This document shows positions 1 to 60,178 of a stretch of DNA of 64,000 nt, one piece after another. The stretch is from Okamejei kenojei (taxonomy: Eukaryota), in contig CM069156.1 of NCBI GenBank assembly GCA_035221665.1, positions 24,924,001-24,988,000 of the forward strand. Direction: 5' to 3'. The position numbers and the translations under genes were made by a program. How positions within the stretch are numbered: position 1 is the stretch's first letter; every line of letters starts with the position of its first letter. Under the pieces are notes generated by a model. It had not been told where the DNA came from. It ran no database searches and worked only from the letters and a program-made list of their open reading frames with translations.

Positions 1-118
1 TATGGTCTTCAATTCTGATGACAAGCATGTTATTAAGCACCTTATCTAATGCCATTTGTATGTTCATGTACCGTTAAACTCCAATAATCTGTTATCTATT
101 TGATCGGAAATCCCAATA

Positions 119-585: not shown

Positions 586-1899
586 CAATGGTTTGGCACC
601 TAGCTGCGTGTTTGCCAGTTGCCTTGAAACACACCAGGACCCTGGCTCCCATAAAATTCACTGCGTTTGCGAGATCATAAAGTAAATTAAATATTTGTTG
701 GAGTGTCACTTGTTGGAATGACATCCAAAAGTTAGAAAAAAGCTGCTAGCCCAGCAGCACCATATTCTGACTCGAACATGTAAAAAAAAAACTGCAGGTG
801 CTGAAAATCTGCAAGACAATGCATGAAAAACTGAGTAGGCCAGACAGCACTCAGCTAAGAGACCTACCGTTTCCCATCTCCAGCTACCTGGGTTTCATTC
901 TGCCCGCAGACGCTATCTGCGTGGCGTTTACATGGTCTGCCTGTGACAATTTGGGTTCCTCCAGCTGCTATGTTTCCTTACCACACCCCAAAGATTTGGT
1001 GGCAAGTAGTTTAATTGGCTGCTGTCAATTGCTCCTAATGTGCTGGCGAGGGGTAAACTCTGCGGGGAGAAGATGGGAATGTAGAATTTTGTAAAACAAA
1101 GTGCTGGGTGGATTAATTTAGCAGGCGGCATCTGTGTAGGGAAAGGATTGAATGGAGTTAGCAGGGTCCATTCCCTCCACAGATGTTGCCTGACCTGCTA
1201 AGTTACTCCAGCACTTTGTATTTTACTTATGCTTGTAGCACCGGCAGTTCATTGGATCTCCATTTAATTGTGATTTGTGTAAATGGGTGTTTAGTCAGCA
1301 TGCACTCATTGGATGTAATGACATGTTTCTCACTGAATGTCTCCAGTTGGTCTTCCTGGTTTGAGATCCTTCCTCTCTCCTGAGATGCCAGGATGAACCT
1401 GCTGAATTTTTTCGACGTATTCTTTTTATTACCATGAGTGTGCCGAGAAGGGTTGATTTAAAAAAAAAACACTTCTAATATCTATCAGCCCTTTCACACT
1501 TTACTAGTTGCAAACTATTACGTGACACCCCGAGATTGTGGACGGCTGTGCAATCTCCCACAATGGAGCAAAATGAAGGTCACATATTCATGTTCTCCAG
1601 AGATGCTGCCTGACCCGCATGAGCTACAATGATACAACTTATTTGTTGTCATTTGAACCTCAAAGTTCAAACGAAATTTGCAGTTTCTGCAGTCACACAA
1701 ACAATAAAAAGAACCGAGACACAACACAATTTACACAAAGATCCATCACAGCGAATCTCCCCCTCACTGTGATGGAAGACAAAGTCTTATCTCTCCCCAT
1801 CCTCCTCCCGAGGTCAAACTCAAGCACGTTGTGTCCAAGTTGCCCTGGACCTTTCCCACTCTGAACCAAAGATCTTTGCTCAGAACTGCTGGTGACGCA

Positions 1900-3191
<1,292 letters not shown>

Positions 3192-4289
3192 TAATGTGGG
3201 AAGGCCAACCTGTACAAGCATGAGTTACTTTATCTAAAACAGACGAGAGAGTTAGAAAAGTCGTTCAGCATGGAATGATGCCTCATCTAAACTATTCCTA
3301 TTTGGCCGCATATGGCCCATATTCCCCGAAACCTTGCTATCCATTCACCTGTCCAAGTGACTTTTAAGTGCTGTTATAGTACTTGTCTCATCTGGCATAT
3401 GCACCCTCTGGAAAAGTTAGCATTTGAGTTTGGACATTTCCCCTCTCACCTTAAACCTCTATCCTCGGGTTCTTGATTGCCCAACTGGACAAAAGGTGCT
3501 GTATTCACCCTATCTGTTCAAATTATGGAACATTTTTATTTAATAAACTGAGTATTTCCAATAATAGCGAGCCATAAACACAGATTTATCATAAACAAAG
3601 AAAGGGAAACTTTTGTGCAGAGGTTTCAATGATTTGGAAAGTTTTGTGGAAATGTGCAAATGCCTGTTGGATGAATTGCTTCCCTTAAAATATTTAACAT
3701 GTGGGTGGTGTTTGCGGACAAACAAAAAAACAGGACTGTCTCTGGTGGTTTCTTCCTCAAATGGTGGTGAAAGCAAAGTCTTTGAATATTATTAAAGTAA
3801 CTAAGTTATTGATAAACAAGGTGGTGATGGGTTACCATGAGTGCATAAGAATATGGGGTTAGAATTTGATTAGCCATTTATTGAGGAGCAGAATAGACAC
3901 AACTTTGATTAATGTTTTTAATTTGTGTGTTGAATTGTTTTACCAAAGACCCAATATGTATCTGAGGGGCATTTTAGTTGTGTGGAAAGACTAGGGGTGC
4001 TGGAATTGCTGTTCTCGAACAAGATTGTGTTAAGTAATAATTAAACTAAGATGTTCACAATGTGTTTTAGTATATGTATAGAAACAGTATGAATGTAATT
4101 AGTAAACCCACAAGTATTGGAATGAATTGGTGGAAGATTTGTTGGAATCGGTACTTGCCTCTTTCCGGCACCTTAATGTTGCAAAGTGCTTCATAAAAAA
4201 ATGTAGCCTAGAAACCTGGGAACTTGTCTGGTAAGCTAACTTACTCAGAGCTCGGTCCATGAACGGTGAAATTGGAAAGTTACTAGAGG

Positions 4290-5705
4290 AGATTCTGAGA
4301 GATTTGATGTACCATCATTTGGAAAGCCACAGATTGATTAGGGATAACTTTGTGCATGGGAAATCTTGTCAGCAATTCAAAAGTTTTTTTTTAAGAGATA
4401 ACCAAAAAGATTGAGTGTCGGATGGGTGGCGTCTACATGGATTTTAGCAAGGCCTCTTATAGGCTACTCCGGCAGGTAAGATCACATGGGATCCAGGAAG
4501 AGCTAGCCAGATGGCTTTGTATAACGTCAGGATGGTAGTGAAGGGTCATTGTTCGGATTGAAGGTGACCTGTGGTGTGCTGCAGGGATTGGTGTTGGATC
4601 CACTTATTTGTAGTTTCTGTGAATAATTTAGATGAGAATGTAGGTGGCAAGGTTAGTAAGTTTGTGGATGACACTAAAATTGGCATTTTGGTTGGTGAAG
4701 AAGTTTCTGAAGATCATAACAGTGTTTAGATTGACTGGAAGTAGGCCAAGAAATGCCAGGTAGATTTAACTCTGACTTGTGTGAAGTGTTGTAGTTTGTA
4801 AAGTTAAACCAGGGCATAACATGAACAGTAAGTAGAGACATCCTGGCAAGTATAGTGTAACAGCAAGAACAACTGGTGCAAATGCATAGTTCCCTGAAAG
4901 TAGCAACAGGAGACAGGGTGATGAAGGGCATTTGTCACGCTTGCCATCATTTGTCAGGACACTGAGGACAGGAGTCAGGGCACTATGTCATTGGTGAGGC
5001 CACATTTGGAATAGTATTCAGTTCTCTTTGCCTAGCTATTGGAAGGGTGACATTAAGCTGAAAAGGGTGCAATGAAGATTCATGGGGCTTGAATTGTATG
5101 TAGTGGCTCAATAAACTTGGGCTGACTTCACTTGCGTGTATGAAACATAGAAACATAGAAAAAAATAGGTGCAGGAGGAGGCCATTCGGCCCTTCGAGCC
5201 AGCACCGCCATTCATTGTGATCATGGCTGATCGTCCGCTATCAATAACCCGTGCCTGCCTTCTCCCCATATCCCTTGACTCCACTAGCCCCTAGAGCTCT
5301 ATCCAACTCTCTCTTAAATCCATTCAGTGATTTGGCCTCCACTGCCCTGTGTGGCAGGTAAATTAACAACTCTCTGGGTAAAAATGTTTTTTCTCACCTC
5401 AGTCTTAAATTCTCCCCTTTATTCTAAGACTGTGGCCCCTGGTTCTGGACTCACCCAACATTGGGAACATTTTTCCTGCATCTAGCTTGTCCAGTCCTTT
5501 TATAATTTTATATGAGGTTGAGGGATAGCATTATAGATGTGTATAAAATCATTAGGGGCATAGATAAGGTGAATAGACTCTTTTCCCCCACAGTACTGGA
5601 ATTTAAAACTGAAAAGTATGGGTTTAAGGTGAGGCAAAAACTTTAAAGGGGATGAGGGGTACCTTTTTCACCCAGATGGTGGTAGGTACATGGAATGAGC
5701 TGGTG
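4290..5705 (+). mobile_element. Decayed CR1-type LINE (RT region), interrupted by a nested younger CR1 3' end
   Basis: Degenerate RT motifs (gtctacatggattttagcaaggc ~ VYMDFSKA; aagtttgtggatgacactaaaattgg ~ KF.DDTKIG; gtgaggccacatttggaata ~ VRPHLE). Confidence 0.8.
5143..5512 (-). mobile_element. CR1-type LINE 3' end with (GAAACATA)n tail, nested in an older CR1
   Basis: gaaacatagaaacatagaaa...ggccattcggccc tail; sequence nearly matches the copy at 34935-35180. Confidence 0.8.
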
Positions 5706-8700
5706 GGGTCGTTTTTGAGATGCTTCACCCTTTCTGCGTGGTTATCACTTCCTGTCACAAAGCTTTAAATGTCACGTCTATTTCAGAATCTTGATGTGGC
5801 CTGCTTATCAGAGTTGAGAGTGGCATTAAGGCCACAATGCTCTTACACTGCTCGTAAGAAGCTGCACACCCCTGTTTCTAGCTTTTTTTTACAGCAATGG
5901 TACATTCAGTACCTCAAATGTGCTCTAGCATTTATTAAGAACATGACATCCAGTCTTCGTTTCACTTGCCTGCTCTCTCCCTCATCCTTGACTTTTTTGT
6001 TGTTTGTCAGTCTCTGCCTTGATACATTCAGTGCTGCTGTTCTACAACTCTAACAGAATAGTACAGTGCAGGAATATGTCCTTCCACCCATCATGTCTGA
6101 ACTGACCATGATGTCAATGCAAACTACTCTCGTCTGCATACACGTGATCTATATTTCTGCCTTTTCTGCCTATAAGTACCTCTTAAATGTCTAGTATTTG
6201 CTTCCCCTGTTCATTAGCAGGTTATTCCAGGTATTTACCATTCCTGTGGGTTTTTTAAAATTGCCTTTCACATCTCTTCTAAACTTTCTCCTTCTCACCC
6301 AAACCTATACTCTCTCTTTTGACGTTTCTGCCATGGGGAGGAAAATGTTTCCGTCTACCCTACCCTTCTAATTTTATGTACTTTTATCAGGTTGTCTCTC
6401 AGCGTCCAACGCTCCAGAGAAAACAATTTTGTGGCTGGTGTATTGATATGGATGTGGAAGCAGCCAAATAATAGTTGGAATATATTGAGTCATTTCCCAC
6501 ATGGCAAACAGTAACTAGTTTGTCATTGGAGTAGAGAATTCTAGAGATTCCTGACTTTCTGAAGAAAATCCTCCTCTTTGAATTCTACAACACTTTTGTA
6601 GAAATCCTGGCAGTATTCAAGTCATCCCTTTAGGGGAAAAAAGATCTCAACATCCATCCTGTCAACTCATTAGGATCTTGTGTTTCAATAAGGTCACCTT
6701 TTATTTTTCTGAGCTACAACAAATATATAGCCTATTCGTGCAATCTTTCATTATACATTACCTTTTCGTTCCAGAAATCAATCTTGTGATACTTCCCTGT
6801 ACTATGAAAACAAGTGCATGCTTCCTTAGAAACTAATCCAAACTATATGCAGTATTTCAAGTGCAATGGTATCAGTGCCTTTGCAAAATTGCATCAAAAC
6901 ACCTCTACATTTAATGACCACATTCCTTGCAATAAAGCTAAATGTTGGATCCCTTAGCATCACAACATTTTATGATCTCAAGTAATTTAATTTAATTTAT
7001 TCTTCATTACAAATTGGATAACCAGACAATTGCATAATACTTAAATCTGCCAACTTCATGCCAAATCATTTAATCTATCTATATACCTTTGCAGGCTTTG
7101 TGCCCTTAACATATTCCGTGTATTTTTGGTATCTTCAGCCACTCTGACTACGAGACATTCCGATCATCGACATATAAATATTTGAGGCCCAGCATGTGAC
7201 GGGTTGCAGCTTACTGTTTGGCATTTGAGAAATGATCTATTACATAATTAGAGTTTTATTTTGTTGTTCCCCCATCCACATCGCCACACCATCCTCCCCT
7301 GTGCATCCTTATCTTATGAAGGAACCTTGTAGGTTGAACCTTGAATTTATCCCCTGTTAGATGCTCAAGAACTTGAGCACATTTGTCTCAATTTTTCTTT
7401 CGTAAAAGCACATAGTGATGTGCTTTCTGTAAGGTATTCAAGTCTTGGAAGCAAATAGAAGAGCTTTCATTGTGAAAGATTACAGATATATTGCAGTGGG
7501 GCATAATTCAACTCGGGGGAATGCAGACTCTGAAGTCAAATAATAGATTGCCTGCTGCCTTTAGGGCAGAAACAGGGAGTAAAGAGTAGCTGTCAACACT
7601 AGGAGAAGGTGGGTAGCAAATCACTGGGGGGGGTGTATTTTTCTGGAGTCAAAAGATTTAAATTGTGATGATACCAATTTATGAGAGGGTGAGGTGTAGG
7701 CAATACTGAAAACAACAGGAACAAGCTGTAGACTGGCATTGAAAGCCTTAACAAATAAAGTCAAATATATAAATTGAGGATAGTACATTCTGGAGCTTAG
7801 CACCCACCTAAGCAGCTGAAGAGCCAACACCTATTTGTTGCTGAGATTTGCACATGCATATTGAAAGTAGAGAAGGTTGAGGAAATTAATTGAAAACTGA
7901 ACACTTTTATTTTGAGGTGTTCCTTAACCAGAAGCCATTGCATGTTAGCAAGCATATTGAAGGTTTAGGTGCATGAGGAACAGGTTTGTAATTTTTAAAC
8001 TTCATAGAAAACAAGCAGGGAGGCCAGCCAGAAATGTGGCATAATGAATTTGAGATAATGGGCGCAGATCAAGTTTTCAACTGGAGATGAACAGGGCTGA
8101 CATTATCTGGAAATGTAAATGTTATTTATTGGAAAGTTGATGCCATTTCAGACAACGTTGCTCACGGGTAGCATCTAAATGAAAAATGAGAGAGGGTCAA
8201 GAAAATAGTATTGGGATTGTTTGTCTGGATCGCTGACCTAAAGATACTGATTTCCCACACAAGTAGCTGAGAATTTAAATTCAAATAATTAATTAAAACT
8301 GGAAGAAAAGGTTTAGCTCAAAATTGAAAGTACCAGATTGTTGTATAAACCCACTTTAACTAATGTCCTATTGTGAACTGCACTTATTTTTGCCCAAGAA
8401 ATAGAATACTGGGGAAACTCAGTAGGTCAGGCAGCATCTGTGGAGGGAGATGGACAAATGATGTTTTGGGTTAGGGCTATACTGAACTAGCAATCTAGAA
8501 GCATGGACTAAATGGAAAGATCCAAATCCGAAACCCATCATGTTAGTTGTGGAATTCAGTTCTCAAAAGTATTAATTAATTAATTTGTTCGTTCGTTCAT
8601 TCATTCAAGTCGTGATTCAGCCCAGATAATATAAATAATTTCCCCATATTCATCAATTGCGGAATATTTCGCATAATGGAAATGTTATTGCAGAAATACC

Positions 8701-9919
8701 TGCAGCTTCGTGTTCTGGGGGGGGGGGGGTGCGCAGAGGAGAGTTGGTTACCTAAAGCTTTTGCTTTTTAAGTCTTGAAAGCTGCAATATACCCAAATGG
8801 AAGATGCAATTCTGTTCCTCAAATTTGCGTTGGATTTTGAGTTATTAAGTGTGGGGAAATAGAGGAGATAAGGTTGACAGCCCTGAGAGTCATGATAGAT
8901 GCAAATTGTGTTTTAAGTCATATCATAGGACATATGAGTAAGATGGAGAAATTGAAAACTTGAATGGAGTCCTAACAGTCTGGGAGGGAGTGCAGTACCG
9001 CATAAAAGGTGGACCAAAAGACCTGTTTCCGTGCTGTACAGCTCGATGATACTATGTAATGCTGGATATATGAACCAAAGTTAATGACCTATTTCAGGCC
9101 AATATCCTTGACGTCAAGGCAGTAATTATATTCTTTTGGTTCGCTTGGGCAGGCCATGGCATTCATAAGTCCAAAATTAGACATTTGATTCCAAGGCAGC
9201 CAGAACAAAAGATTTTAGGATGTAGTGATACATCATCCCCTCTATTGCATGCATTTCTTCCCTTTGGCTACTTGAAGTCGTGAAGGGACATTGAGGATAG
9301 CACTGAGGTCCTAGACTACATGTAACAGCAATGCCATGAAGCCACCCATTTGGTTGCACTGTTAGGCTCCATCTGCTGCATCTGTGGAAGGGTTTGCAGT
9401 TTCGACAAAATTGTAGTGGAAGCAAGTCATCTTCAATCCTGAGGAACTGCTTAGAAGGTTGACAAGAGCAAGATGGATCAAAACTACAGCATGTAATTTT
9501 TACAAATGCAGACCTCCGTGTTTTATGTAATGGAACAAAATCGTATCTATGCATATTCTCATGCAACTGAACATGTAACAATTTATGTAGACAATCTAGT
9601 TGAAATGTTAAACCAGGCTTGACTGCCAGTCAAAGAAGGAAATCATGCCGCACTACAATATTTGAACATCAATCTCTTTTCCCAATGTGCTGACCAGAAT
9701 TTCTTCTACACTAGCACCACTAACACAATAGCTTTCTTTGGTATCTCTTTGTTAGGGAGAGTTTAATGGACATGCAATTACTTGCCAATTGAAGAAATAG
9801 CATATTTTCAAAAATATTTATGTATACAAATGGCCTTATTCGGCTCATTTGGAAGACATATAAGCTGTTTAATTTAACTGTTGTGGAAGGAAATGCGTGG
9901 CCTTACTGCTGCATTTCAG

Positions 9920-10916
9920 TCAATAAGCGAGTTTGGTATTCCAAAAAACACAAGGAATCATGGGATTTGTCAAAGGCACTCCTGATAAACATTCTCGGCA
10001 ACTGTGTTGCTGCATGTATACAGACCTGTGCTTCATCCGTAGTCAGGATCAAAACCAGATCTCCGGTGCTACAAGTGCTGTTGAATTGCTACTGGGCCAT
10101 CCCTGTCCCCTCCCGAGTGCCCCATCCATGTCCAGGGTGACCCTGGACTGATGGGACATTGGCCCAGAGCAGTGGCAGCCAAGGCTTACAGCCAGCGCGG
10201 AGAAGCAGAGCTAACTCAATGTTCAACTCTGCCTGTCCCGCCGAGTTAACCGACAGCCCTGGACTGACGCGATACTGGCCCAGAGCAGTGGCGGCCCAGG
10301 CTTACAGCCAGCGCGCAGAACAAGAGCTAACTCAGCGTTCAACTCTGCCTGTCCCGCCAGGTTAACCAACTGCTCTGGACTGACGGGACACCGGCCCAGA
10401 GTAGTGGCGGTCCAGGCTTACAGCCAGCGCGGAGAAGTAGAGCTAACTCCAGTTCAACTCTGCCTGTCCTGCCGGGTTAACCGACAGCCCTGAAGGGACA
10501 CAGGCCCGAAGCAGTGGAGTTGGCGTTTCTTCTCCGTGCTGGCTTGTAAGCCTGGGGCAGCCGATGTCCCGCCAGTCCAGAGCTGTCGGTTAACCCGGCG
10601 AGACAGGCAGAGTTGAGCTGGAGTTAGTGCTTCTTCACCGCGCTGGCCGCCACTGCTCCGGGTCGGTGTCCCGCCAGTCCAGGGTCATCCATGGCATCTA
10701 TGCCAGCTCCCGGACAGGGAGGGGACACTCGGGAGGGAACAGGGAAGGTCCAGTAGCAATTCAACTGCGCTTGCAGCGCTGGAGACCCGGGTTCGATCCT
10801 GACTACGGATGAAATACAGATGTGTATACATGAAGCAGCACAGCTGCCGAGAATGTTTATCGCGAGTGACCCATGACCTGGGCATGTGCAGTCGTAATAT
10901 CGAACTGGCTTATTGA
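9920..10916. mobile_element. Foldback-like palindromic element with long inverted arms and ~116-bp tandem modules
   Basis: Outer arms tcaataagcgagtttggtatt (9920) / aatatcgaactggcttattga (to 10916); 9984-10135 inverted to ~10710-10860; forward modules start at 10141, 10257, 10373, 10488 and reverse modules span ~10517-10686. Confidence 0.8.
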
Positions 10917-11235
10917 TGCTTCCAATGAAATATGGGTAGTAAAATGACTGCAGAAAAGTACTTTGATAATAACATACAAAATATGGGTAAATGCAATTAA
11001 TATAATGGGCATTTGATCAATATAGACTTGGTGTCATGCGTGACTTTCAAATTACTATACAGCAATTTATCTGTAGATGACACACCACTGCAGATGCTGG
11101 AACTGGAAGCAAACTTCCGGAGGAACTCAGCAGGAGGTCTAAAAGCATCTGTAAAGGCAAAAGGGCATTTTGTGTTTTAAGCTAATATTTTATGTTTATC
11201 TATGCGATTGGTGGTGTGACTGATGTGACAGATAA

Positions 11236-11465
11236 AGGCCTGTCCCACTTGCCGATTTATTTATTTTTTCGGTGACTACCAGCATCATTGACTGACTTAT
11301 CAGGTCACCGAAAAATTTGCAGCGTGATGGCGTATGGTGCGCGGTGTTTTTTCAAGTGTCACAACTTTTTTTTTTTGTCGCCACTGGATTTTGAAATGTT
11401 CAAAATCATTTGGCACAACTGATGATGCCAGCAGTCGCCGAAAAAAATAGCCGTGGGACAGGCCC
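11236..11465. mobile_element. MITE, probably PIF/Harbinger-type
   Basis: TIRs (a)ggcctgtcccac / gtgggacaggcc(c); flanks taa / tat, resembling a TWA TSD; internally semi-palindromic; no ORF. Confidence 0.65.
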
Positions 11466-12529
11466 TATAGATGCTTCCACGCCAATTTTTAGGTAAAACG
11501 AAACATGTCAAATTTAAGAGGGAAAATGTACTGCTTTTTCAAATGCTAATTTAAAAACGTCATAAAAACTTTAAGAAAATAACTTCCATACTGAACCAAA
11601 AATTAAGAAAACAAAAGTTCATTACGTCCGTAATAGCAACTTGTAAAACATGTCAAATTCAACGTGTGAACTCTTTGAATCATTGCTTCAGGAGGAAATT
11701 GCAGAGCAATAAGATTGTAGACATGTCTGCTGATTACATTCATTCTAATCAACAATTGATCTTTGATTCCACACCTTATAATTCTTGTAATATTTGAGTC
11801 GGTAATTGAAGCTTGCAGATATTTCATGCATGACTCAAGTATTTAAATATTATTTATTAAGAACCAACAGTGATGTAAATAACTTATTTGACTTCCATTA
11901 AATCACATTGTTCCTAGATCAGTTGGTTAGTTTGCTGAAACTACTTTATTTCATGTTTTTAAAAAAAAAGGTCAGGTAAGCAAGCGTGGAACGAGCAAAG
12001 ATTGCAAAACTGTTTATCGTAAGTGTATTAATAGGTTCTACCTTGCTCTACATTTTAAATGAGATTTGTGCCAATCGTGTTTATAATTAATTTTAATGTG
12101 GATAAACCAAACTTCAATTCTGAAGTTTCCCTTAAGACGGTGGAAAATGTATCCAGAGTTCTTATTTTTAGGTACAACCAAATATGACGGGATTAGTTTA
12201 AATTGGCAATATGATTGGCACAAACAGTGTGGATTGCTGTGCCTGTTCTTGTCCTGTACTGATCTGTGTTTTATGTAATTATGCCACTTGAAATATGCTG
12301 GTGTAAAAAAGATGTCCATCAAGTGTAGTTCAGCTATTGGTATCTGTGGGTTGTCATTGAAATCTGTATCATCTGATAAAAGATGACGTACAGTTTCAAG
12401 TACTTAACATGTGTAGTAAAATGGAAAAAGCTGGAAGCACTCAGCCATTCGAACTATCTCGTGGGTTGGGGCGGATGAGGAAATGATCAATGTTTCCGGT
12501 CGAGAATAGTTCTGGACTTGGAGTATCAG

Positions 12530-13130
12530 ATTGTTATATATTAAATGGCAGGATTATGAGTTGCATTGATGTACAGCAGGATCGTGAGGTACAAGTCCAT
12601 AGCCCCCTGAAAGGTACACGAGTAAATATGGTGAAGGCCAGTAGCATGCTTGCAATAGCATTCATCAATTGGGGAACTGAGTGTAAAATTTGAGAGGTCC
12701 TGTTGCAGCTGTATAAAAAAATTGGTTAGGCCATATTTGGAGCATATTTGCAGATCTGGTCACCACATTTCAAGATGGATGTGGAGCTTTTGCAAAGGGC
12801 ACAGAAGAGTTATCCAGGATACTGCCTGGATTAGAAGGTATTTGATATAAGGAGATGTAAGACAACCGTGAGTTGTTTCCCCCTCTGTCTAGAGCTTTGA
12901 AGGCCTAGGGGAAAGCTGATAGAGGTGTAAAAAGAAAAAAAATGGACACACACATAGGGTAGGTAATCAGAGGAATATTCTCGGGGGGATATGCAAAAGT
13001 GATATACAAGGGATATTGAACATGCAGAGTGTGGAGGGGTATAGATCACATGTAGGTAGATGGGATTCGTTTAATTTGGCATCTTAGTCGACGCAGATGT
13101 TGAAGGGCCTCTTCCTATGCTGTATTGTTC
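12530..13130 (+). mobile_element. Decayed CR1-type LINE 3' fragment
   Basis: ttggttaggccatatttggagcat (LVRP.LE.) and 3' tail gaagggcctcttcctatgctgt shared with other CR1 copies in the window. Confidence 0.65.
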
Positions 13131-13855
13131 CATTATCTTTCCATGGATGCTGCTTGACCTACGTTTTCTGTAATTTTTCCGTTTGTTTCATATTTCCAGC
13201 ATTATAATATTCTGCTTCATTGTCACAAAATATCTGTTCACATAATTGAATGTTGCTCTTAAATTCTCAAGATTCTCCTGAGAATAAAATTGGATTTATA
13301 CTAAAATTTGTCAAATAACCTGGTTTCCTCGAAGTTTACTGTATTTGGGTTTAGTTGTTTATTTGGATTGAGTTAGATTTAGGCATGAGAGCATGAAGGG
13401 TAAAATAAATTATTTGAATTTCTTTCATGTACCTTTTCAAAGTGTTTCAAGTCAACTTGCAGGCAGATACGTATTTTTCGATTTAATGTAAAATATATGC
13501 AAATCAATTTTGTGTATGATATTTCTCAAGAGTAAAATGTGGTGGAGTAATATTGCCCCAGGCATGGGGTAACTCTCTTGCTCTTTGGGAATGGTCCTAA
13601 GGATATTTATTGCTTACTGGGGAGAGCAAACACTTTTTCAATTTAATTTCACCAAAAAAAGCAACTAATGTAGTGTTTAATTTCACCAAAAAAAGCAACT
13701 AATGAAGCTTCTAAAATCAAGAGGAGCATCGATAATCTGAAAAAAACATTGTTTAGATTTATTATTGTTAATATGAACTAAAGTACTTTGAAAAGCTTCA
13801 TTTTGCATACTGTCCAATCATATTAGATAATACTATACCTAAATACAATCTAGTC

Positions 13856-14369
13856 CGGGGTAGGCAACCTACGGCCCCCGGGCCAAATGCGGCCCGTAAC
13901 CTGATATCATCCGGCCCACAAGCGTATTTTTTTCCCCGCAGTTATCGGGCCTCCTGGGACCGAGGCCGTGGTGACACAAGGAGGCCTGCGTTGGCGGCCA
14001 CAATGGTGGAGCCACTGAGGAGCGCCGAGCTCCAGCTGTACCACCGGCGGCGCATCTTCTGTGTCTGGGCCTCACTGTCGGGATCAGGGTTGTCAATAGG
14101 ACAGGGAAGGGTGAGTGTGAGTGTTTGAGCCACCGTCTTCAGGACAGAGCCAAGGCAATGGTCCGTAGGTACGCCATGTTCGTGAGCGCCCGTAACTAGG
14201 GGGCCAGTGCTCCGGGTGGCGGCCTCGAAGGGGCAGGATCTGTGTGAACACGTGATTTGATGTCTGCCACCCAGGGCGGGATCCTTATGTACACGTGATA
14301 GACGTGGCCCGTCACCCGTTCACGGGCATGCATCCTAGCCCATATGCAGAACAAGGTTGCCAACCTCTG
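13856..14369. mobile_element. Non-autonomous hAT (Charlie-like) DNA transposon
   Basis: TIRs cggggtaggcaacct / aggttgccaacctctg; perfect 8-bp TSD atctagtc at 13848-13855 and 14370-14377; subterminal cggccc motifs typical of Charlie-group hATs. Confidence 0.88.
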
Positions 14370-14834
14370 ATCTAGTCAAATTCAAGTACAACAGGTAGAG
14401 CAAAGTGGAAGATGTGGTGTGCAGAGTATAGTTCTCAGCATTGTAGTGCTTAGGTTTGAGGTGAGAGGGGAAAAGTACAAGACATTTGAGGGACAACATT
14501 TTCAGGTGATGGTGAGTAAATGGAACCAGGTTCTAATGCAAGGGGTAGAGTTGGGTTCAATTATAACATTAAAAGAAAAATGCTTGGACAGATCTGTGGA
14601 CAGGAAAGGTTCAGAGGGATATGGCCAGGTATAGGCAAGTGGGACTAGCTTGTTTGCACAACTTTATTGCCATGGATGAGTTGGTCTGAAAGATCCGTTT
14701 TTGTGCTGTTTGGCTCTGTGATTGGATAAGGAGGAATTTCTTCAGCCATGGGTGGTGAATCTGTGGAATTCATTGCTACAAATCCTCATGGTTAGAAAGT
14801 CAATGGGATATTTTAAAGCAGAGATTGATAGGTA

Positions 14835-15040
14835 GAAACAAAGAACAGCAGATGCCGGTGTACCGAAGAAAGACACAAAGTGCTGGGCTAACTTAGCGGG
14901 TCAGGCAATATCCCTGGAGAACAAGGATTGGTGACGTTTTGGGTTGGGACCCTTTTGAAAAATGGTCCCGTAATGTCACTTATCCATGTTCTCCAGGGAT
15001 GATTCCTGACCTGCTCAGTTACTCCAGCATATTGTCTTTC
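14835..15040. repeat. Palindromic PLE pseudo-LTR-derived repeat inserted into a CR1 fragment
   Basis: Arms ~14869-14938 and ~14972-15039 are reverse complements; the CR1 sequence resumes on both sides (gagattgatagg ... ttcttgattagt). Confidence 0.7.
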
Positions 15041-15754
15041 ATTGGAGATAGAAAAGTTCTTGATTAGTAATGACGTCAAAGGTTACGGGAAGAAGGCAAG
15101 AGAATGGGGTCGAGAGGGAAAAATAGATCAGCCAAGATTGAATGGTGAAGCAGATTTGAAGGGACGAATGGCCTAATTCTGGTCTTATGGATGCTAAAAA
15201 CTTGGATACTGTTTAGTGTAATCGTTAGCAAGGTATTCTAGAATACGCGGAATTAATGTGTTGAATTTTGCCTTTTTGAATACATTTGAGTAGCCAGGGT
15301 GGAAAGGCTTTAATTAAACTCTACAAAAGTGAGCTGAGTGAATGGCCTCTTGTTCAAAGTCAACTTTCCTCAGCGATGAAGACCAACACAGAAGATGAAC
15401 AGTTGAGTTACTGAGTTTAATACCAAAAATGATTAGGCACCTGAAATTACCATCGACTGTCTGTTATTGCCGCATGTGAAGCAAATTCAAAATATTTGAT
15501 ATGGGCACTACTGAAGAACAAATCTATAAATGGCTCTCTAATTTTGGATAAAAATAAGGCAAAATAAATCCGTGCTCCCTGATGAAATCCACGTCTGGAG
15601 AATGCTAGTGTTTCTGATCTATGTCTGACATTTATACCATTGTCAGTAAGTGGTGCTATCGTTGCTATCAGAATTCCATGTAATTCCTTTGTAGTACGAT
15701 ATTCCTGAATTGTGCATACCATGAGCTCATTTTGAACTACTATGTTCTCTCTTC

Positions 15755-17320
15755 TAGTTATACAGCATGGAAACAGGCCCTTCGTCCCAACTTGTCCACA
15801 CTGACCAACATGTCCCATTTGCACTAGCCCATCCTGCCTGTGTTTGGCCTATATCCCTCTAAACCCATCCTATGTACCTGCCTAATTGTTTCTTAAATAT
15901 CGGGATAGTCCTTGCCTCATCTGCCTAATCTGGCGGCTCATTTCATGCACCCACCAACCTTCGTATGGAAAAAGTTACCCCTCGCATTCCTATTAAATCT
16001 TTTTCCCTTCACCTTAAATCTACGTCCTCTGTTTCTTGATTCCCCTACTCTGGGCAAGAGACTCTGTGCGTCTACCCAATCTATTACTCTCATGATTTTA
16101 TACACCTCTCTAAGATCACCCCTCATCTTCATGCGGTCAAATGAATAGTCCCAGCCTACTCAACCTCTCCCTATAGCTCAGTCCCTCGTATCCTGGCAAC
16201 ATCCTCGTAAATCTTCTCTATACCCTTTCCAACTTGACAAAAAAATTCTTGTAACTTGGTACCCAGAACTGAGCACAATACTTTCAATGTGGCCTCACCA
16301 ACGTCCTATATAACAGCAACGTGACCTACCAACTCCTATACTCAATACTCGGTGCCAAAAGTCTTTTTGACCACCCTATCCACATATATATGTGATGCCA
16401 CATTCAAGGAACTATGTACTTGCACTACTAGACCCCTCTGTTCTACAACACTCCCCGGATCCCTACAATGTAGATTCTGACTTTCCAAAGCAAATCTTGA
16501 ATTCCATCAACCATTCCTCAGCCCACCTAGCCAACCAATCAAGATCCTGCTGCAATTTTTGATAACGATCTTAACTGTCTGCAATACCACCCACTTCTGT
16601 ATTATCTGCAAATTTGTTAATCAAGCCATGTACCTTCTTATCCACATCATTGATATAGATGACAAACAGTAATGGGCCCAGCACCAAACCCTGATGCTCT
16701 CCTAATGCCAAGCCATTTTTCAAACCAGAATACCAAGTCACTGTTGGTTCCATGTGTCTTAACCTTGCAGTCAGCATACTATGAGAGATCTTGTCAATGT
16801 CTTTAAGTCTATGTAGACAACATTTATGCCTATCTTCATCAATCATCTTTGAAGCCTCCTCTTAAAACTTTTCCAAGATTATACAATGTGAACTTTCCTG
16901 CACAAAGCTCTGCTAACTATCATTAATAAATACAAGAGTTTCCACATGTGAGTAGATCCTATCCCTGAGAATCTTCTCCAATCGCTTCCCTATCACTGAT
17001 AGAAAATCACTGGTTTATAATTTCTGGATTAACCATATCACATTCTGTTATCCTTATTGCCCATCTTAAAGGAAAGCATTAGTTATTGTCCAGTCCACTG
17101 GCAGCTTGCCTATGGTTTTCCTTAATCCTCCTAGCTAAGGTAATTTTGTGGCCCCTTTTGACACTCCTGATTTCCTGTTTGAATTCTTTCTTGCTTTCAA
17201 TATATTCCTTCAGGGCCCTGTCTGATTTAACGTTCCTAAACCTCGCAAATATTTCCTCTTTTTTGACTAAATTTATCATGCATCTCATCCAAGGTTCCAG
17301 AATCTTGCCATCATTGCTTT
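15755..17320 (-). mobile_element. Decayed CR1-type LINE
   Basis: ORF remnants QGLVLGPLLFVIYIND...KFADNTEVGG and MRGDLREVYKIMR...RGNFFHTKV; 3' tail near 15755. Confidence 0.85.
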
Positions 17321-17709
17321 AAATAAATCGGTCCAAATTTATCTTTTAACTTTTATTTCATGACATATTACCAGATGGCATAGCTTTTTATTATAGAAAA
17401 TTGTGATACTACTATTTCCCAGGAACTCCTGCCCTCACCGTGTCAAAGGGGTTGCCTATACATTGAATTGCAGAAAGCTAAACCTCAGGGGAAAGCTGAA
17501 ATGCCGCATTGAGTGCATTTATGTTGCCTTTTTCTTGTTTTAATAGAGGAAAGAGGATGTCTTGCAGTGTTGGAACAGTGTGTTCCAAGTAAGTAAGCTG
17601 ATTTAAGAGATCATCTGGTCTTTATTATGCATTGAAATTGAATTTGTCCCATTCAACCATGATACAATGTCATTTGATTCAATGGAAGATATCGTGAGGC
17701 AGCTTACAC

Positions 17710-19086
17710 TAAAAGAGCTAATAGCCAAATCTAAAATTGAGTCGTTCTTCTACAAAAGCATGGACTAGTAGAACAAAAGAATCCCATCTGACGAGATTGC
17801 CATGGTCTAGCTTTAACGTTTGTTGCTATCTGCTTTTTAAGAAACAAACTTTGACATTTGGCTGTAGTCGGCAGGGATCTCGCTGGGACCAGCAACAGGT
17901 GACTGAGTAAGAGGGTGCAGTTGACCGGGATCTGAAGGGGAGAAAACTGAGCTCTGATCGAACCCTTTGAGCCTGGCCTCCCGAAGAAGCTCCCGGTAAA
18001 AAAACTAAGGTTGCTCAGTCTGAGGTTGGCCTGGTTCCAGACAAGATCCTTAGAAGCAGACAGCGAAGATAAGACCACTTGTGTAAAGGATTGGCTTCTG
18101 TATTGGAAATGAGTAAAGGATTGACTTGTGCATTGGAAATGAATAAAGGATTGGGCACGGCAGACTAAAGAGGTTTTGTCACAGTTAAAGAATTGGACAC
18201 CGCAGACTACAAAGTGTTTGTCACTAATGTGTATTGGAAAGACAATGTGTCTTGAAGAGACAGTGTTTCGAAAAGACTGTTGTGAATTTGGCTGAAAGGA
18301 TTACACCACTTACTGGTGGCACCTGATCCATTGACACTAAACAACTTCATCAGGATGGTTGTCAATAAAGAGAGTGAGAACTGGTTGCCATACCATTGGT
18401 TTGATGGACTTTGGGGTACTATTGAACTGGTAGCCATACGTTTGATTTGATGGACTTTGGGGTACGGTGATACATTCTGCTAATCATTGCTCTAATACTT
18501 GCAACCATTATGTATACCTACCGAGGACTGAATGTTATCATGTTTGACAAAAAGGAGGGAACGAAGAGCTAATAGTCAAATCTAAAATGGAGTTCTTCTA
18601 CAAAAGCATGGACTAGTAGAACAAAAGAATGGCTCGGTGTCAAGTCTGAATTACTTTGTAAATTATATGGAACACAGTATGGAGGACAGGTTGTCTTTTC
18701 AATAAAGAAATTAAGATGGAATCCTGCAGTAATAACATGTGCTTCATTCAGGGCCATAAAGAAGCCAAAAATAGCTGAAGCTCCAGAGATAAGTAATAAT
18801 TGTTATTGGTGAGCTTGATTTGGACCAAGCTTTCCTATATTGTGAAAGGCTACAGAATCTTTCAGTCATGCCATATTCAGACTTGGTAGGAGTGTTTTAC
18901 TGATAAGAAAAATGTATAATTGTGCTAACTCTCCTTTGTTCTGTGAGTGGGAACACGAGAAGCACTGTGCAATGTTTGTGCTCATTGTAGATCTTTGCCA
19001 CTCCCTTCTGACGGATCAATTAAAGATTGCCATGGTTTGCCTTTAACGTTTGTTGCTATCTGCTTTTTAAGAAATGAACTTTGACA
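17710..19086 (+). mobile_element. Internally deleted LTR element / endogenous retrovirus (5'LTR 17710-17856, PBS, ~700-bp internal region, PPT, 3'LTR 18562-19086)
   Basis: 17713-17782 repeats 18564-18630 and 17782-17856 repeats ~19002-19086; both end ...CTTTGACA. PBS TGGCtGTAGTCGGCAGGgAT (17859-17878) is complementary to the tRNA-Ser 3' end apart from 2 insertions. PPT AAAAAGGAGGGAA (18549-18561). Flanks acac / atac. Confidence 0.85.
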
Positions 19087-21329
19087 ATACGGTAGAACTA
19101 AACCCAACAGTAGATACATATGAAACTCGTGAACCATTGAGGACTGTTCATATTTCAATTGATTTTCTTTTCTTGCAATAAAAACTCACTCGGGCAATGT
19201 TTCTGGGATTATTATCAAGCAGATGGAGACTGTTTCAAGAAAGTGAGCATAAAAACAAGTTTTGAATGACTGGCAGAAGAAATTTGACGGGCTTAATAGC
19301 TTAAACCTATTTCTCGTGTGAGTTTCTGGTTTATTGTCTTCATCCAGGATTTACCTCTTATGTTTTTGATGAAGTTACACACTATTTTTCTATTAGCTGT
19401 ATGTACAAAACTAGAGTTTTCTTTAAATGTAAAGGTTTACCAAGACGCAGCAAACTTTCTCCTATTTCTTGACATCTATTGAATATTGCTGCTTTAAAAT
19501 GAACAACCCAACTGGAAACATTTGGTTCCAAAAGTTCATAGCTGACATATTTAACTGATGTTATAAAGATGAGGAATGATCTCCAGTGAGAATGTGTTTC
19601 ACTTGAGCAGCTGGGATCAAGCTGCATGACTGGTGAGGGTTGCAATTGCTTACAAATTCTTTTAAACAGAAGACTTTGGCTGGGAACTGTTCTGCAGATT
19701 GGATTGTACACTCAGCTGCTTTTCTAATTTGGCACTCTCATCCCAACCTGTTATGACACTGTGTCCCTGAGTATAATTGAAAATGGCAAAGATTGCTGTG
19801 AATGTGACAGATGTGTGCAAAGGCAATATGTGAAATGTTTGACAGAATAAAAGCCTGAGGAATGCTGTTGCCTGCCATTCACTGACTCTTGAATTCTATA
19901 CCATATTCAAAGTTGGGAATCTACTATTATCAAGGTCCAAAAAAAAGACTGCCAATAGTTTTAAATAATTACTGGAAAGATTCTGAACACTTGGAGTTGT
20001 TTCCTTTTTTATGAAATCTTTCCTTAAAAGAATAGACTTGAATAATGGTCGTGACCATATTGCTGAATTGGACACCTCTATAGTCCTCTGCCCTTGATCC
20101 CACTGGAGTGGATGACATTCCCAAGCATGCTTGTTTGGAATAGGGGCCTGTAGAATTCTAATAGTGGTACTGCCCTCCCTGAGGGTGCACTCTTCCATTG
20201 ATAAGTTTGTTGCAAAAAAATCATGGTAGTTCCACTTCTAAGAATCCTACCATGATATCCAATTATTTGGCATTACTTTATTCAGATCTTGCACTTAAGT
20301 TCTCCATTAGACTAACATCTGAGGTCAGCAGGTTAGTGTTGGAATGTGATGTGTGCTGATTGGAATGCTTTCTGGTAACTGTTTATTGCATTGACCTTAA
20401 GAGCCAAGGACAATCTTGTGCCTACATCAGGTATTTTTCAATTATTTTTACCAGTTGCCGCCTTTTCCTAATTTTTGGTGTTGACTCCTTATTGGGGTGA
20501 TTTTGGGTGGTATGGCACCTTTGTCCATTTAATTTCTCTATGTAAATTAATTTGTGAGTCTTGTATCAACCAGTGAAAAGTAAAAACTTGCTTTTAAACT
20601 GGAATTTACTCTGTATAGTAAAAATGCAGTTGTGAATCGATGAATAAATTTATGGAATGCATTCCCTTCTTTGGGTGTGGTCCTTGATTCATCACATTTT
20701 CTACCTATCAAATCCTACTTTATTCAATGACCAGACAGACCATAAGTCATGTACTGTATCTTTTTTATTAAATTGCCTTAAGCTTAAGTTGATGATTTTG
20801 TTGGCTTTGAGGAAGGTTAAATGTTTATAACATTTCAACAATAGCAATGTAATTCCAGGAGGAAAAGATTCAATTTACTATCTATCTGCACCCATCTATC
20901 AATGCCCATTCTCAATTAAATCCATTTATCACGTCTGTTTTGCATTTATCCACGTCCCTTCACAGATGCCGCTTGGTTTGCTAAGTTCCTCTAGCACTTT
21001 GATTTTTGCTCAACGTTCCAGTATCCGTAGTCTTGCCTCCATTGGGCAAACTTGGACTTCTTATTTCCCTGGAACTCTGGAACTAGTTGTTTCCACCACA
21101 TCTTTTAGTTGCAATGGTTGCCTTTAACCATATTGGGCAATTACATTACTTGAATCACCTACTAGGACATATTTTGTATGTTGGAGAAAAGTGGAGCACC
21201 TAACGGAATGAATAAAGTGAGGGAGAGAACTTACAAACTGCGTCCACACTGTGTGAGCGCGCGTGTGTGCATCTTTAAAGTCTTAAATGAGGGAGGGTGA
21301 ATAAGGCAAAATGAGCGGCAGTTGCAGCT

Positions 21330-21830
21330 ATGGGTGAGTGCTCGAATATTGCTTTGGGGAAATGGGTGAGTGGTGGAAAAATGCGTTGGGGGGCCAGGCC
21401 TCCCCTATGACAGGGTCCCGATGGGTCTCACTTGGTCTTGTATTTATATTACTAAAACTCTCATCTTGTTTGTACCTATATTTGCACAAAAACAGTACAC
21501 AATAGTGCAACAATTTTAGGCCCACCTATTTACCATTGTCCTGGGATGTGCAGTATCAATTTTTGATCAGATTGATGTTATTGACTCTTAAAATAAAAAT
21601 AACAATTTAAACAGCACCCCTACTTGCTGTCTTTACTTGACTGGTGTCATAATGGGGACCCAATGGTTTCCTTCTATTTTACAAACGCCTCCAAGGGTCC
21701 ATTCTGCCGTGAACGGCACAACTTTGAAGCGGAAGACACGCCTGCGCAGTGCGGACCCGTCAGCCGCGCATGCGCAGTTTGGTGGAATATTACATTGGGG
21801 GAACAGGACCCAATGGGTCTGCGCTTGGTC
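21330..21830. repeat. Two fragments of an unclassified non-autonomous repeat with terminal hairpin (MITE or Helentron-associated)
   Basis: ggtggaa.attgcgttggggga...ggacccaatgggtc..acttggtc occurs at ~21365-21440 and ~21780-21830, and in reverse orientation at ~59745-59885. Confidence 0.5.
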
Positions 21831-22003
21831 CTTTGCCTCTTCACTCCAAAACTTCCATGGCAATAGTGAGGCATGGGAGAAGGGAGGCAAGAGCTTCGGT
21901 GATGGGGGAAATTCACTGACACCAAGTTGTACATGCCTCTTGCATTAAAGACTGCCAAAGTCCCAAACAGCTGCACTTCCCCACATTATTGAAATTATAC
22001 CAG

Positions 22004-24161
22004 CCAAAAGTCAGCAACATGCATTGAGATTGTATATCATATTGAACATGGTGTTATAGTATCTTGATTTAGTAAAGAAGTTCAATATATTTTATTGATG
22101 TTAGCTAATAAACATATTATGAAAAAAGAGATAATTTTAAAAAGCTGTCAATATGAAGATTAATAAGGTTCTCGAGGCAGGGGGCGATACACTGAACATA
22201 GGACAGATTTACAAAGGGAATTCCAAATCTCAGCATCTTTGTAACAGAACACATGAACAAAAGTTGAACATAGAACCCCTTTAAAGAGGGACTAATCTTC
22301 TATCTCAATGCCATGCTACCATACCATCTTCACAAATCTCAATTTGCACAATTACTATGAGGTATCAAATATAGCAAATGAGCTTCCACATCCCTCATGG
22401 GCAGAACATCCTGGGATTAGTGACCCAGTTCTAAAACTCCAGCCAGGTAACATCAACCTCCATGTCAATTTTCGATTTTAGCAAGACCAATTCTCACTTG
22501 TTTAATTCTCACTGTAAGGGTCTAGACTGCATGGTTTATTCTCGCATGACAAACCTAGTGAATCTTCACTGCATTGCCTCCATTGCAATCATATCCATCC
22601 TTGTGTATGGAAACCAGGAGTGGTCCCACAAGGGTTACATTACACCCTCTTGCAATAAATAGAGGACAAAGTATCATGGACCTTTTAATCTGCTTGTTGT
22701 ATCTCCACATCAACTCCGAACAACGGTGATAAACTTATCTGCATTCCATTTATCACTTTAACCCCTTCAGCCTCAACACATTCAAGGCACGAGTCCCACA
22801 ATTGTGGCCACCCCAATTCTAACTACTTGATAATTACAAGTCATGCGTTTGTTGCAAAGCTCTGGAATTCCCATCCAACATTAAAATCCTTTTTAACCAT
22901 GCATTTGATTATATTCCCCAATACATGCAAAGGATGATCACCCTGGATAAGGTATAGAAGGGCCAAGAAATATTAATATTTCACAAGAACAAAAGTCGAG
23001 GCACAGCACAGAAAATTGGATCAGTTTAGTCAGTGTTCATCACCAAAACCAGGCAGAGATAGCACAAGTTGGATGCAGATTGCTGCTCCCTCTGCACTGT
23101 CCTGTCACACACTTTCACAATAGGGACATTGTGGTTAATTGCAGTTTCTTAAAACTGATCATGACAATCTTAATATTTAACGGCCATGACTCAGCAAAGT
23201 ATTAAACAGGATACTTATCTAGCAACATTTTCTCAGGGAAAGGCGTCAGACGCTTGAAATCCAGCAGGTCCAGACTGATAAGTCACTTGTCTGTTACTAT
23301 GTCCTTGCATACCAAGTTGAAGGAAAGCTGGCTGCTATCAGCAACAGCCACATAAAGTATGTCATTCCACAAAGTGGGCAGCCATCACAATACGTGTTGA
23401 AGAAGGAACTGCAGATGTTGGAGAATCGAGGGTACACAAAAGGCTGGAGAAACTCAGCAGGTGCAGCAGCATCTAAGGAGCGAAGGAGATAGGCGACGTT
23501 TCGGGTCGAGACCCTTCTTCAGCCATCACAACACCCTGTTTCTTTAAGGAAAAGCATTGTTTTGTTCCTAAAACAATCGCCAATTAGCTTCGCCACCTGA
23601 ACATTGATATTTAAGATGAGTTTTGGATTTACATCTGGGACCATGTGGGGGGATGGAAAGCGAAAGAAGAAATGTCTACTTCAATTATTTTCAATATTCT
23701 ACGTCAAGAGTGTTTTATTGTCCCAGATAGAACAATTAAATTCTTACTTGCTGCAGCACAACAGAATATGCAAACATAGTACACTGTAAACAATATGATA
23801 CACAAGAGAGAATAAAGTTCAGTGTGTGCGCGCGCAGCACTAATATCTTTTTCTTTGCACTACCTGTTGTACTTATGTACGACTAAATTATACTCACATA
23901 TAATATGATTTAACAGGTAGCACAAAGTTTTTCACTGTATCTCTGTACATGTGATAATAATAAACCAATAACTTGTCTCTATGCACCCAAAGTATAATAA
24001 TTAAACATGAAACCTCTTTTTAGAGGCAAATTATCTCTTTTTTCATAATATGTTTATTAGCTAACATCAATAAAATATATTGAACTTCTTTACTAAATCA
24101 AGATACTATAACACCATGTTCAATATGATATACAATCTCAATGCATGTTGCTGACTTTTGG
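22004..24161. repeat. Perfect 134-bp inverted duplication (22004-22137 vs 24028-24161)
   Basis: ccaaaagtcagcaacatgcattgag...gaaaaaagagataattt is the exact reverse complement of aaattatctctttt...ctgacttttgg; arms 1.9 kb apart. Confidence 0.93.
23391..23522 (-). mobile_element. Short PLE-derived insertion with intact hammerhead core and 12-bp TSD
   Basis: Direct repeat cagccatcacaa at 23379-23390 and 23520-23531. The minus strand reads CTGAAGA-AGGGTCTCGACCC-GAAAC-GTC-GCCTAT. Confidence 0.78.
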
Positions 24162-24166
24162 TTGGT

Positions 24167-25653
24167 CCTGTGCCCAACCTTCAGGACAGTTGGGCACAGG
24201 ACACATCATCAGTAGTATACCCTTGCATCACTGGGTGTTTCAGCTTTTTAACACTATATACCCTCCACAAGGGCGGCCCGCTACAGGATGATCAGCCCTC
24301 AGCGCATGTCCTGTGTCGAACTGCCTCAAAGATTCACCATGACGTATTTGGGGCCCAGCATGGGTCTTTCCGCTCGAGCCAAACCCAACGGCTGCTTCTT
24401 TCAGCCGCGTCTGAGAGTGATCTTATGGTCTTCTGCAGAACCTGACCGTGGATTCCAAGCTCCTTCAGCAGTCTGATGATAGATGATGCAACAAATCCTC
24501 TGCATCCCACTTCAACTGGATAAACTTTGGTGTTCCAGCCACGCTGCGCTGCAAGCTCTGTGTAGCGCAGCTTCTTACGCTCATAGGCCTCCACAACAGA
24601 GTTCTCCCATAGAACTATGAGCTCTATGATGGAAGCAGTCTTCTGTGAAAGGGACCAGAACACCAAATCTGGCCTGAGGTTGGTTGAAGCAATTTCAGGT
24701 GGAAAGATTAGTTGTCGGCCGATGTCCGCCAGCATCCTCCAGTCACGGGCCTTGCATAGGTTTCCTTCTTCTGATCTGGTGGAAGGATGTTTAGGGGTGT
24801 TCTGTCCTTCTCGGACAAAGGTTGTCGCCCTTAAGTGGGAGGGGTTGCTTGCTCTCGGAGGCAAGGAGTTGGTCGCACACCGCCTGTTCTCAAGGGCTGT
24901 TGCCAGGCTTTTTAATACCTGATTATGCCGCCACGTGTATCTCCCTTGCGTGAGGCTGGTCTTGTAGCCTACCATGATGTGTTTGAGGGTCGCTGGAGTT
25001 GGGCAGAGGGCACAGGTTGGATCCTCGCCGTACCTCTGATTGTGGTTCTTTGGTGATGGAAGGACGTCGTATATCGCTCTGATGATGAAGCTGATCTTGC
25101 TTGATTCCATTTCCCATTGTTCTTTCCAGCTGATCTTCCTCCGCTCCACACCTGCCCACTGCATCCATTGCCCCTGTTTGGCAAGAGAGACCGCCTTTGC
25201 ACTTCTTACGGCCTCCTCCTGTCGCCGCACCTCCTCAACCACCAATGTCCTCCACTCTGATGTTGTGGCCTTTCGCCAAGTTGGTTTACTTGTCGTAAGG
25301 CCAAAGCCTCCTCTTCCCTGCTGCACTTGCCCCACAACGTCTTTGTGCCTCAGGGCTGATGAAGCTTGCTGTACTGCATCGGATGGTGTCCACTTCCGGC
25401 CAGTTACTAGGGGCGGCGCAACAGCACTGATGGTCTTGTCTCTAGAGTTCCTCAGTGTCATCTGGAGTCTTACTTTGGAACATTTGTATTCCTCTGTTAG
25501 ACTAGTGAGAGGTAGTTCCAGGACCCCTTTGCCATAGAGGCCGATGTTAGTTAGACATCGTGGGACACCGAGCCATTTCTTCGCGTAAGAAGTTATGGTT
25601 TGCTCCATCTTCTCCACAGTTATTGGGGCTTCATAAACGGTCAGTGGCCACAT
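24167..25653 (-). mobile_element. 5'-truncated non-LTR retrotransposon with restriction-like endonuclease (Hero-like, R2 group)
   Basis: Uninterrupted frame 24334-25653: RT C-terminal region (WPLTVYE...KWLGVPRCL), CCHC-like knuckle CALC...KHIMVGY, GRYTWRHNQVL, PD-(D/E)xK-type RPDLVFWS...IIELIVLWE...ERKKLRY...PVEVGCRGF; ~165-bp 3'UTR. Confidence 0.88.
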
Positions 25654-26032
25654 TGTATGCATCTGAGTATGGGTTCAGGCCCAGCAGACTTTTAATCCAT
25701 GCAGAGTTGACATAAACAGCTCAGCAGTGGAAAATGCCATTGAACTATATTGTGACAATAATTACTTTATTATTACTGATAGACAGGATTCTTGGACATA
25801 TGAGAAAAGATGGGTTACATGGAAATATGTGAGGCAATAGGATTGTTTGGGTTGCAGTGAGAGGTAATATAATGTTGGGCCTCCTATGTTATAAGGAAAT
25901 GTATGATGAGAAATATGCTGTGAATTAAGTGCCGGTGCTCCTCTGTTGTATTATTTCAATACTTTACCCGGTTTAAAGCTTTTAAATGTTTATTTTGATT
26001 TGTATTGTAACTGACATTGTTTCTTTTTGTAG

Positions 26033-26170
<138 letters not shown>

Positions 26171-59745: not shown

Positions 59746-60178
59746 GACTAAGTGATTGGGTCCCAGTCCCACGGGAGGCCTGGTCCCCCAACGCAACCCA
59801 TTTCCCAACGCAATGTTCCACCACTCACCTGTTCCCCCAACGCAAACCGTTCGCCCAATGCAATATTCCACCACACACCCATATGTGGGGACAAGGGGGT
59901 GTGTGGGCAGGGGGGTCTACAGTCCCGATGTGAGGAAATCTTAAAAAAAAAAGTGCCTTTTCTCCCTGCCAGAGATGTACATGACAGAGGGGTTGACCAA
60001 CTTGCCCTCGCAGAAGGGAGTTCCCCATTTCCACTCTTCAAGGGTTTTACATGAACCACTGGGTAAAGGCAGTTAAAATGAAACCTACTTGGAAGCAAGA
60101 GACAGGCCGTACTGTGAGCCTTACAATGGGAGGTGCAGTACTGAGAGAGGGCTATGCTGTGGTGGAGGGAACACCAAT

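Follow-up and report, generated by a model that had tools for sequence, protein, structure and literature searches.

A probable provirus, internally deleted, of an abundant skate endogenous retrovirus family, most likely class I (epsilon-like), in an intron of CRK

Introduction

Endogenous retroviruses (ERVs) are plentiful in cartilaginous fishes (PMC10699275, PMC10435555, PMC7947760), and a survey of 6 chondrichthyan genomes reported 2018 clade I and 2843 clade III reverse transcriptase (RT) loci (PMC11089739). Because such loci run to thousands in those genomes, retroviral relics of this kind are common. Two elephant shark lineages, both named CmiERV, are among the closest described systems: lineage I (scaffold 2) is snakehead-retrovirus-like, and lineage II (scaffold 324) was grouped with the epsilonretroviruses (Han 2015, PMC4422223). 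Fish ERVs often carry a gamma-type envelope (env) gene, which the walleye viruses lack (PMC9967133), and the target site duplication (TSD) of the walleye epsilonretrovirus is listed as unknown (PMC12789967). The tRNA that primes reverse transcription is not necessarily conserved with phylogeny (PMC5210030).

Deleted proviruses that retain only their cis signals are already well known, and the element analysed here is an ordinary genomic fossil of that kind. It lies in a 64-kb stretch of skate (Okamejei kenojei) DNA, hereafter the window, for which an earlier note had claimed a miniature LTR element with a tRNA-Ser primer site. That note also held that ERVs of cartilaginous fishes are sparsely described; this does not apply to the relics themselves, which are common, but it agrees with our finding no description of individual skate families, that of the present element included, in the open literature searched on skate and shark ERVs.

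Results

The element occupies positions 17710-19086 of the window; it and its immediate flanks have the following features, all on the forward strand.

17706..17709 (+), possible TSD, left copy, matching 19087-19090 at 3/4 letters
17710..17856 (+), 5' LTR, 147 bp, start not TG, end CA
17857..17858 (+), 2-nt spacer following the 5' LTR
17859..17878 (+), tRNA-Ser primer binding site (PBS) with two single-base insertions
17879..18289 (+), leader, multicopy in four organisms
17981..18011 (+), leader motifs (8-mer, 7-mer, 6-mer), in the same order in the CmiERV scaffold 324 leader
18083..18277 (+), leader tandem repeats with 30-bp, 42-bp and 18-bp units
18289..18290 (+), probable site of the internal deletion, where contigs of other copies continue upstream
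18290..18548 (+), broken 3' coding remnant, possibly an env tail
18378..18465 (+), tandem duplication of 46 bp within the remnant
18549..18561 (+), polypurine tract (PPT), 13 bases, adjoining the 3' LTR
18562..19086 (+), 3' LTR, 525 bp, start not TG, end CA, very high copy
19087..19090 (+), possible TSD, right copy

The earlier note had described an internally deleted LTR element in a CRK intron with its signals in order, and this was borne out: gag and pol are absent from 17710-19086, the 5' LTR ends in CA and is followed by the 2-nt spacer and the interrupted tRNA-Ser site, and the leader repeat, the PPT and the 525-bp 3' LTR follow. The 30-bp leader repeat spans 18083-18154, and the 42-bp and 18-bp repeats come after it. 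The exact ends of the element were inferred from the LTR-LTR alignment because no empty site was seen.

The claimed loss of about 370 internal bases from the 5' LTR proved to be one of 372 bp (corresponding to 18630-19001 of the 3' LTR) together with a further 10 bp (19014-19023), and the deletion edges show microhomology of at most 1 base. The 3' LTR has a TATA-like hexamer region at 18915 and polyA-like hexamers at 18701 and 19019; the missing part of the 5' LTR includes the TATA-like and both polyA-like hexamers. The two LTRs differ at 8 of 141 ungapped columns. In this copy both lack the canonical TG start, which is present in other family members.

The 18-mer of the PBS, with which a human tRNA-Ser template oligonucleotide begins (PMC3299991), is the sole match at up to 3 edits on both strands of the window (128 kb). 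The PPT carries weight by its position only, because purine runs of at least 13 bases occur 25 times on the + strand of the window. The near-TSD of 4 bp claimed earlier does agree at 3/4 letters, a match that chance would give at about 6% of sites, and a 5-bp comparison of the same flanks gave 0/5. Folding of the leader (17879-18080) was modestly above that of shuffled sequences (z -2.2, 4/200), as a packaging region might show.

The element lies in sense orientation within a CRK intron of 22.9 kb (3141..26032, +) with GT-AG ends. The exon before it (2373-3140, +) codes for SH2 and SH3 domains (Pfam), is closer to CRK than to CRKL among solved structures, and has its best match, at 99% identity, in a skate (Leucoraja) CRK protein cluster; identity to other rays and to sharks was at most 88%. 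The last coding exon begins at 26033. We additionally observed that SH2 and the first SH3 are encoded in a single uninterrupted exon of 256 codons (2373-3140, +). In mammalian CRK this part is interrupted by an intron, and an intron may have been lost from it in the skate lineage.

Several other features of the window were recorded. A 446-codon open frame at 24334-25674 (-), which we take to resemble the endonuclease end of an R2/NeSL-type non-LTR element, lies near an inverted pair of 139 bp (21999-22137 and 24028-24166) that is 99% identical. GC-rich 116-bp tandem repeats at 9977-10868 form a large imperfect palindrome with no Rfam match, and a self-complementary 30-bp tandem repeat (98% matches) at 60165-60319 stands directly upstream of a GC-rich island; a first exon that may resemble 14-3-3 epsilon seems to begin at about 61100. 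Rfam and ARAGORN searches over the whole 64-kb window gave 0 matches. The window has 279 N, with an assembly gap at about 36310-36600.

To place the element among other genomes, Logan contigs from 4 of the 24 listed runs (X5, X6, X9 and X19) were aligned to positions 17300-19700 at 80% likeness. These runs represent four organisms (A, B, C and F), organisms D and E having been left out. Summed contig depth was flat on the flanks (11-88) and rose sharply at both ends of the element in 4/4 runs, to 259-2516 times the flank value in the 3' LTR and to 23-216 times that value in the internal part, ratios that are not copy numbers. Contigs leaving the LTR end for unlike flanks numbered 30, 27, 23 and 24 per run, and their flanks agreed at only 0.37-0.40, which indicates many insertion sites. 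The element therefore belongs to a multicopy family. LTR depth exceeded internal depth 7-27 fold, from which we infer a family rich in solo LTRs. At 18585-18913, many LTRs of the family have internal deletions of their own or a 43-bp duplication, and joints within contigs show that internally shortened LTRs are common in it.

These data bear directly on the possibility that unique intron DNA was merely duplicated in place and that the retroviral signals arose by chance. No second copy of the element exists inside the 64-kb window and no empty-site joint was found among the 15 listed, two points in favour of a local event, but the contig pile-up reaches hundreds-fold, 23-30 contigs per run continue into unrelated flanks, and a primer site found nowhere else on either strand of the window (128 kb in all) sits exactly 2 nt past the repeat. 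Because both the pile-up and the many unlike flanks occurred in 4/4 runs, local duplication, which the earlier note had named as its refutation, is excluded.

Family contigs also suggest where the interior was lost. Among those listed, loose ends before 18290 were found in 8 contigs of X5 and 6 of X19, and none in X6 or X9; no listed contig spans 18290, and the loose ends there show that longer forms exist. Because other copies continue upstream at this point into sequence that the CRK-intron copy lacks, 18290 is the probable breakpoint of a large internal deletion. The CRK-intron element may be one deleted copy.

We asked which organisms share the insertion by counting a junction as bridged from 31 bases upward. 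Single-copy contigs reached 37 bases across the left junction in both X5 and X9, and 103 (X9) and 59 (X19) bases across the right one, so that by this rule each junction was bridged in 2/4 runs. In X6 the contigs reached 28 and 30 bases, below the rule, and the left contig of X19 fell short. Both junctions are thus common to organism C and the right one to organism F, and organism B probably has both as well. A letter private to the window copy, at 18336, occurred at single-copy depth in X9 and X19, hinting that the copy in those organisms retains the internal part; two other such sites gave no such signal, and the hint was given no weight. Since junction-crossing contigs at single-copy depth exist in other organisms as well, the insertion predates the split of its carriers.

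The divergence of the two LTRs agrees with this order. Their K2P distance is 0.059 (95% range of the proportion 2.5-10.9%, computed without the altered first bases and the indels), and this 5.9% exceeds the flank distances of 0.3-4.7% (3/1090 differences in X5, 23/1082 in X6, 55/1164 in X9 and 32/1012 in X19). The insertion is at least as old as these organism splits. Two rates quoted in PMC4422223, neither of them from skate, bracket its age at 13 to 135 million years. An insertion common to several skates is a marker for dating both the family and its hosts.

The stretch between 18290 and the PPT had been read as a frameshifted, W-rich and then hydrophobic sequence resembling the membrane-anchor end of an env gene. 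Both parts are present, as an open piece of 54 codons with a W-rich end and a hydrophobic run in another frame. The apparent frameshift is partly the work of the 46-bp tandem duplication at 18378-18465, which is also why the W-rich peptide appears twice, in two frames, with the hydrophobic run in a third; small indels in the remnant distinguish other family copies from the one in CRK. The resemblance to env, weak in itself, was not supported as it had been argued. An open frame of 54 codons occurred in 48% of 974 background windows and equal hydrophobicity in 5.3% of them, and the roughly 80 codons left contain no cysteine motif of a gamma-type env. The placement of the remnant directly before the PPT fits the end of a putative env.

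Searches with the 54-codon piece gave 0 Pfam families (including no fusion-protein family), 0 PDB sequences, 0 matches in the longer and near-length protein searches, no usable match in the ESM Atlas, and, among viral contigs, 31 pattern matches of which 0 were confirmed. Because the query is short, these blank results carry little weight. A single match in a library of 1.84 billion proteins, to a tandem-repeat protein over 17 residues, was rejected as an artefact. The hydrophobic piece had only a sub-threshold holin match in Pfam (E 0.12). DNA patterns of the element gave 0 matches in viral contigs and 3 in metagenomes, of 19-20 bases each, which were dismissed as chance. Positions 1-3405 of one metagenome match (L001) are bacterial by look and carry a cluster with molybdopterin oxidoreductase, ferredoxin and Rieske/cytochrome-like genes unrelated to the element.

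A remnant stripped of gamma-type motifs is also what one would see had the parent been another retrovirus whose envelope was not gamma-type (lokiretrovirus F-like, foamy-like or walleye-type), and walleye epsilonretroviruses and lokiretroviruses do have other envelopes (PMC7947760, PMC9967133). We consider such a parent very unlikely: no fusion-protein family was matched, about 80 codons are too few to type an envelope, and a walleye-type env would also be compatible with a class I (epsilon-like) provirus.

The leader offers a more specific comparison. Motifs at 17981, 17990 and 18006 occur in the same order and at similar spacing in the leader of CmiERV scaffold 324, and an 11-mer at 18186 is common to the tandem repeats of both leaders, at about 190 nt from the first motif in the skate element versus about 88 nt in CmiERV. 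Within the CmiERV sequence file of 24 kb, the 8-mer is found a single time, as is the 11-mer. As null comparisons, a match to the leader with 15 identities and one break was found in 0/1218 stretches of the window and 5/1500 random sequences, and such a match followed by the 11-mer in 0/1218 and 0/1500; the 11-mer alone is common (50/1218 window stretches). The match was picked out by eye, post hoc, in about 24 kb of unaligned sequence. Because it was found in that way, the suggested kinship with CmiERV scaffold 324 is a good lead rather than proof.

The leader motifs, which match a retrovirus, and the ends of the element, which resemble those of murine leukaemia virus (MLV), make a retroviral origin appear more likely than a Gypsy one. 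The earlier preference for a retrovirus is thereby retained on other grounds than the env resemblance on which it had been based. Under the contrary reading the element would be non-autonomous and derive from an LTR retrotransposon of Gypsy or other non-retroviral type, and the 'env' would be a chance or unrelated 3' open frame. Insect gypsy elements do use Ser primer sites (PMC13524379), the hydrophobic run is near chance, and the searches returned no env homologue. Against these points stand the leader and the MLV-like ends, as well as the failure of the same study (PMC13524379) to find intact vertebrate homologues of env-bearing invertebrate gypsy elements, and we judge this origin to be rather improbable.

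The primer site points elsewhere, namely to a clade III ERV (ERV-S or snakehead-retrovirus-like) as parent, with a deleted copy arising by the same mechanism. A tRNA-Ser site is common to CmiERV scaffold 2, XtERV-S and HERV-S, and the epsilon-like CmiERV has another; clade III also accounts for the majority of chondrichthyan RT loci in the survey (PMC11089739), XtERV-S is accompanied by 19 deleted copies built in this way (PMC8278194), and the skate LTR ends in ACA. However, primer use is described as unreliable as a clade marker (PMC5210030), and XtERV-S-type elements combine TGT starts with a 5-bp TSD, whereas the third letter of the skate LTRs is A and their flanks agree at 3/4 letters over 4 bp and 0/5 over 5 bp. 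The leader motifs, moreover, were found in the epsilon-like CmiERV element and not in that of lineage I. A clade III parent therefore seems unlikely to us, if still a candidate to be reckoned with.

Discussion

The element is best explained as a dead proviral copy, deleted internally, from an abundant family of skate ERVs that is probably class I (epsilon-like). That reading is our best guess because the leader motifs match an epsilon-like ERV and the ends resemble MLV; searches of viral contigs and metagenomes brought up no longer copy, and no pol, RT or integrase sequence by which the class could be shown. The build of the element, its multicopy family, the sharing of the insertion and its decay are shown by the data, and the retroviral class, the identity of the remnant as env and the way in which the interior was lost are our interpretation.

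The interior from the leader up to the last ~260 coding bases, with gag, pol and most of env, would have been lost and the cis signals retained. Either a genome already deleted was copied with tRNA-Ser as primer and inserted into the CRK intron by helper enzymes, or a longer provirus may have integrated first and suffered the deletion in place later. The insertion then passed down to several skate species and decayed through point changes, insertions in the primer site, altered LTR starts and the 46-bp duplication, and the 5' LTR lost its promoter and polyA part.

As it stands the element codes for nothing and there is no sign of a host role. With the primer site damaged, the starts of both LTRs altered and no TATA-like or polyA-like signals left in the 5' LTR, this copy is now inert. 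Nothing suggests an effect on CRK. We considered whether the sense LTR could act as a premature polyA site for this gene; the intron upstream has 9 AATAAA and 8 ATTAAA, and such a role is unlikely because 17 of these hexamers precede the element within the intron.

Amplified, non-autonomous miniature LTR families are termed TRIM-like. More speculatively, the 1.4-kb form could itself be such a family in skates, derived from an undescribed tRNA-Ser-primed, epsilon-like virus with an envelope of no known type, and its leader could hold an element conserved from chimaera to skate that marks an ancient packaging signal. We think it doubtful that all of this applies together. The importance of the analysis is modest; it flags an abundant skate ERV family and hints that retroviruses of skates and chimaeras have conserved a leader motif.

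Comparison with known systems sets the element among several retroviruses. Its termini resemble those of the gammaretrovirus MLV, which has 2-nt spacers (AA and TT) and a 4-nt TSD, a U3 start equal to the skate 5' LTR start at 6/7 letters, and the same two letters after CA at the U5 end as in the spacer at 17857..17858 (PMC12789967); this comparison covers termini only and is too short to place the element. HERV-S has the same Ser primer site (PMC5210030), as does XtERV-S of Xenopus, whose 19 deleted derivatives (Xt-S4 to S22) retain both LTRs together with PBS, leader and PPT, the build seen in skate (PMC8278194). XtERV-S is placed in class III, and it differs from the skate element in its TGT...ACA ends, 5-bp TSD, short leader of 158 bp and amphibian host (PMC8278194).

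Of the CmiERV lineages, scaffold 2 (lineage I, elephant shark) shares with the skate element an exact tRNA-Ser primer site that follows the LTR, a cartilaginous-fish host and leader repeats, and differs from it in a TGT start, a longer LTR, a 3-nt spacer and a leader in which the motifs of the skate element were not found. Scaffold 324 (lineage II) differs in its primer tRNA, its 3-nt spacer and its near full length with gag, pol and a gamma-type env, and no LTR similarity was noticed by eye. It nonetheless has the leader motifs in collinear order, a tandem repeat in the leader that is related to the skate one, a similar purine tract and an LTR that ends in GACA, and its last gene has, by eye, a W-rich and then hydrophobic end like that of the skate remnant.
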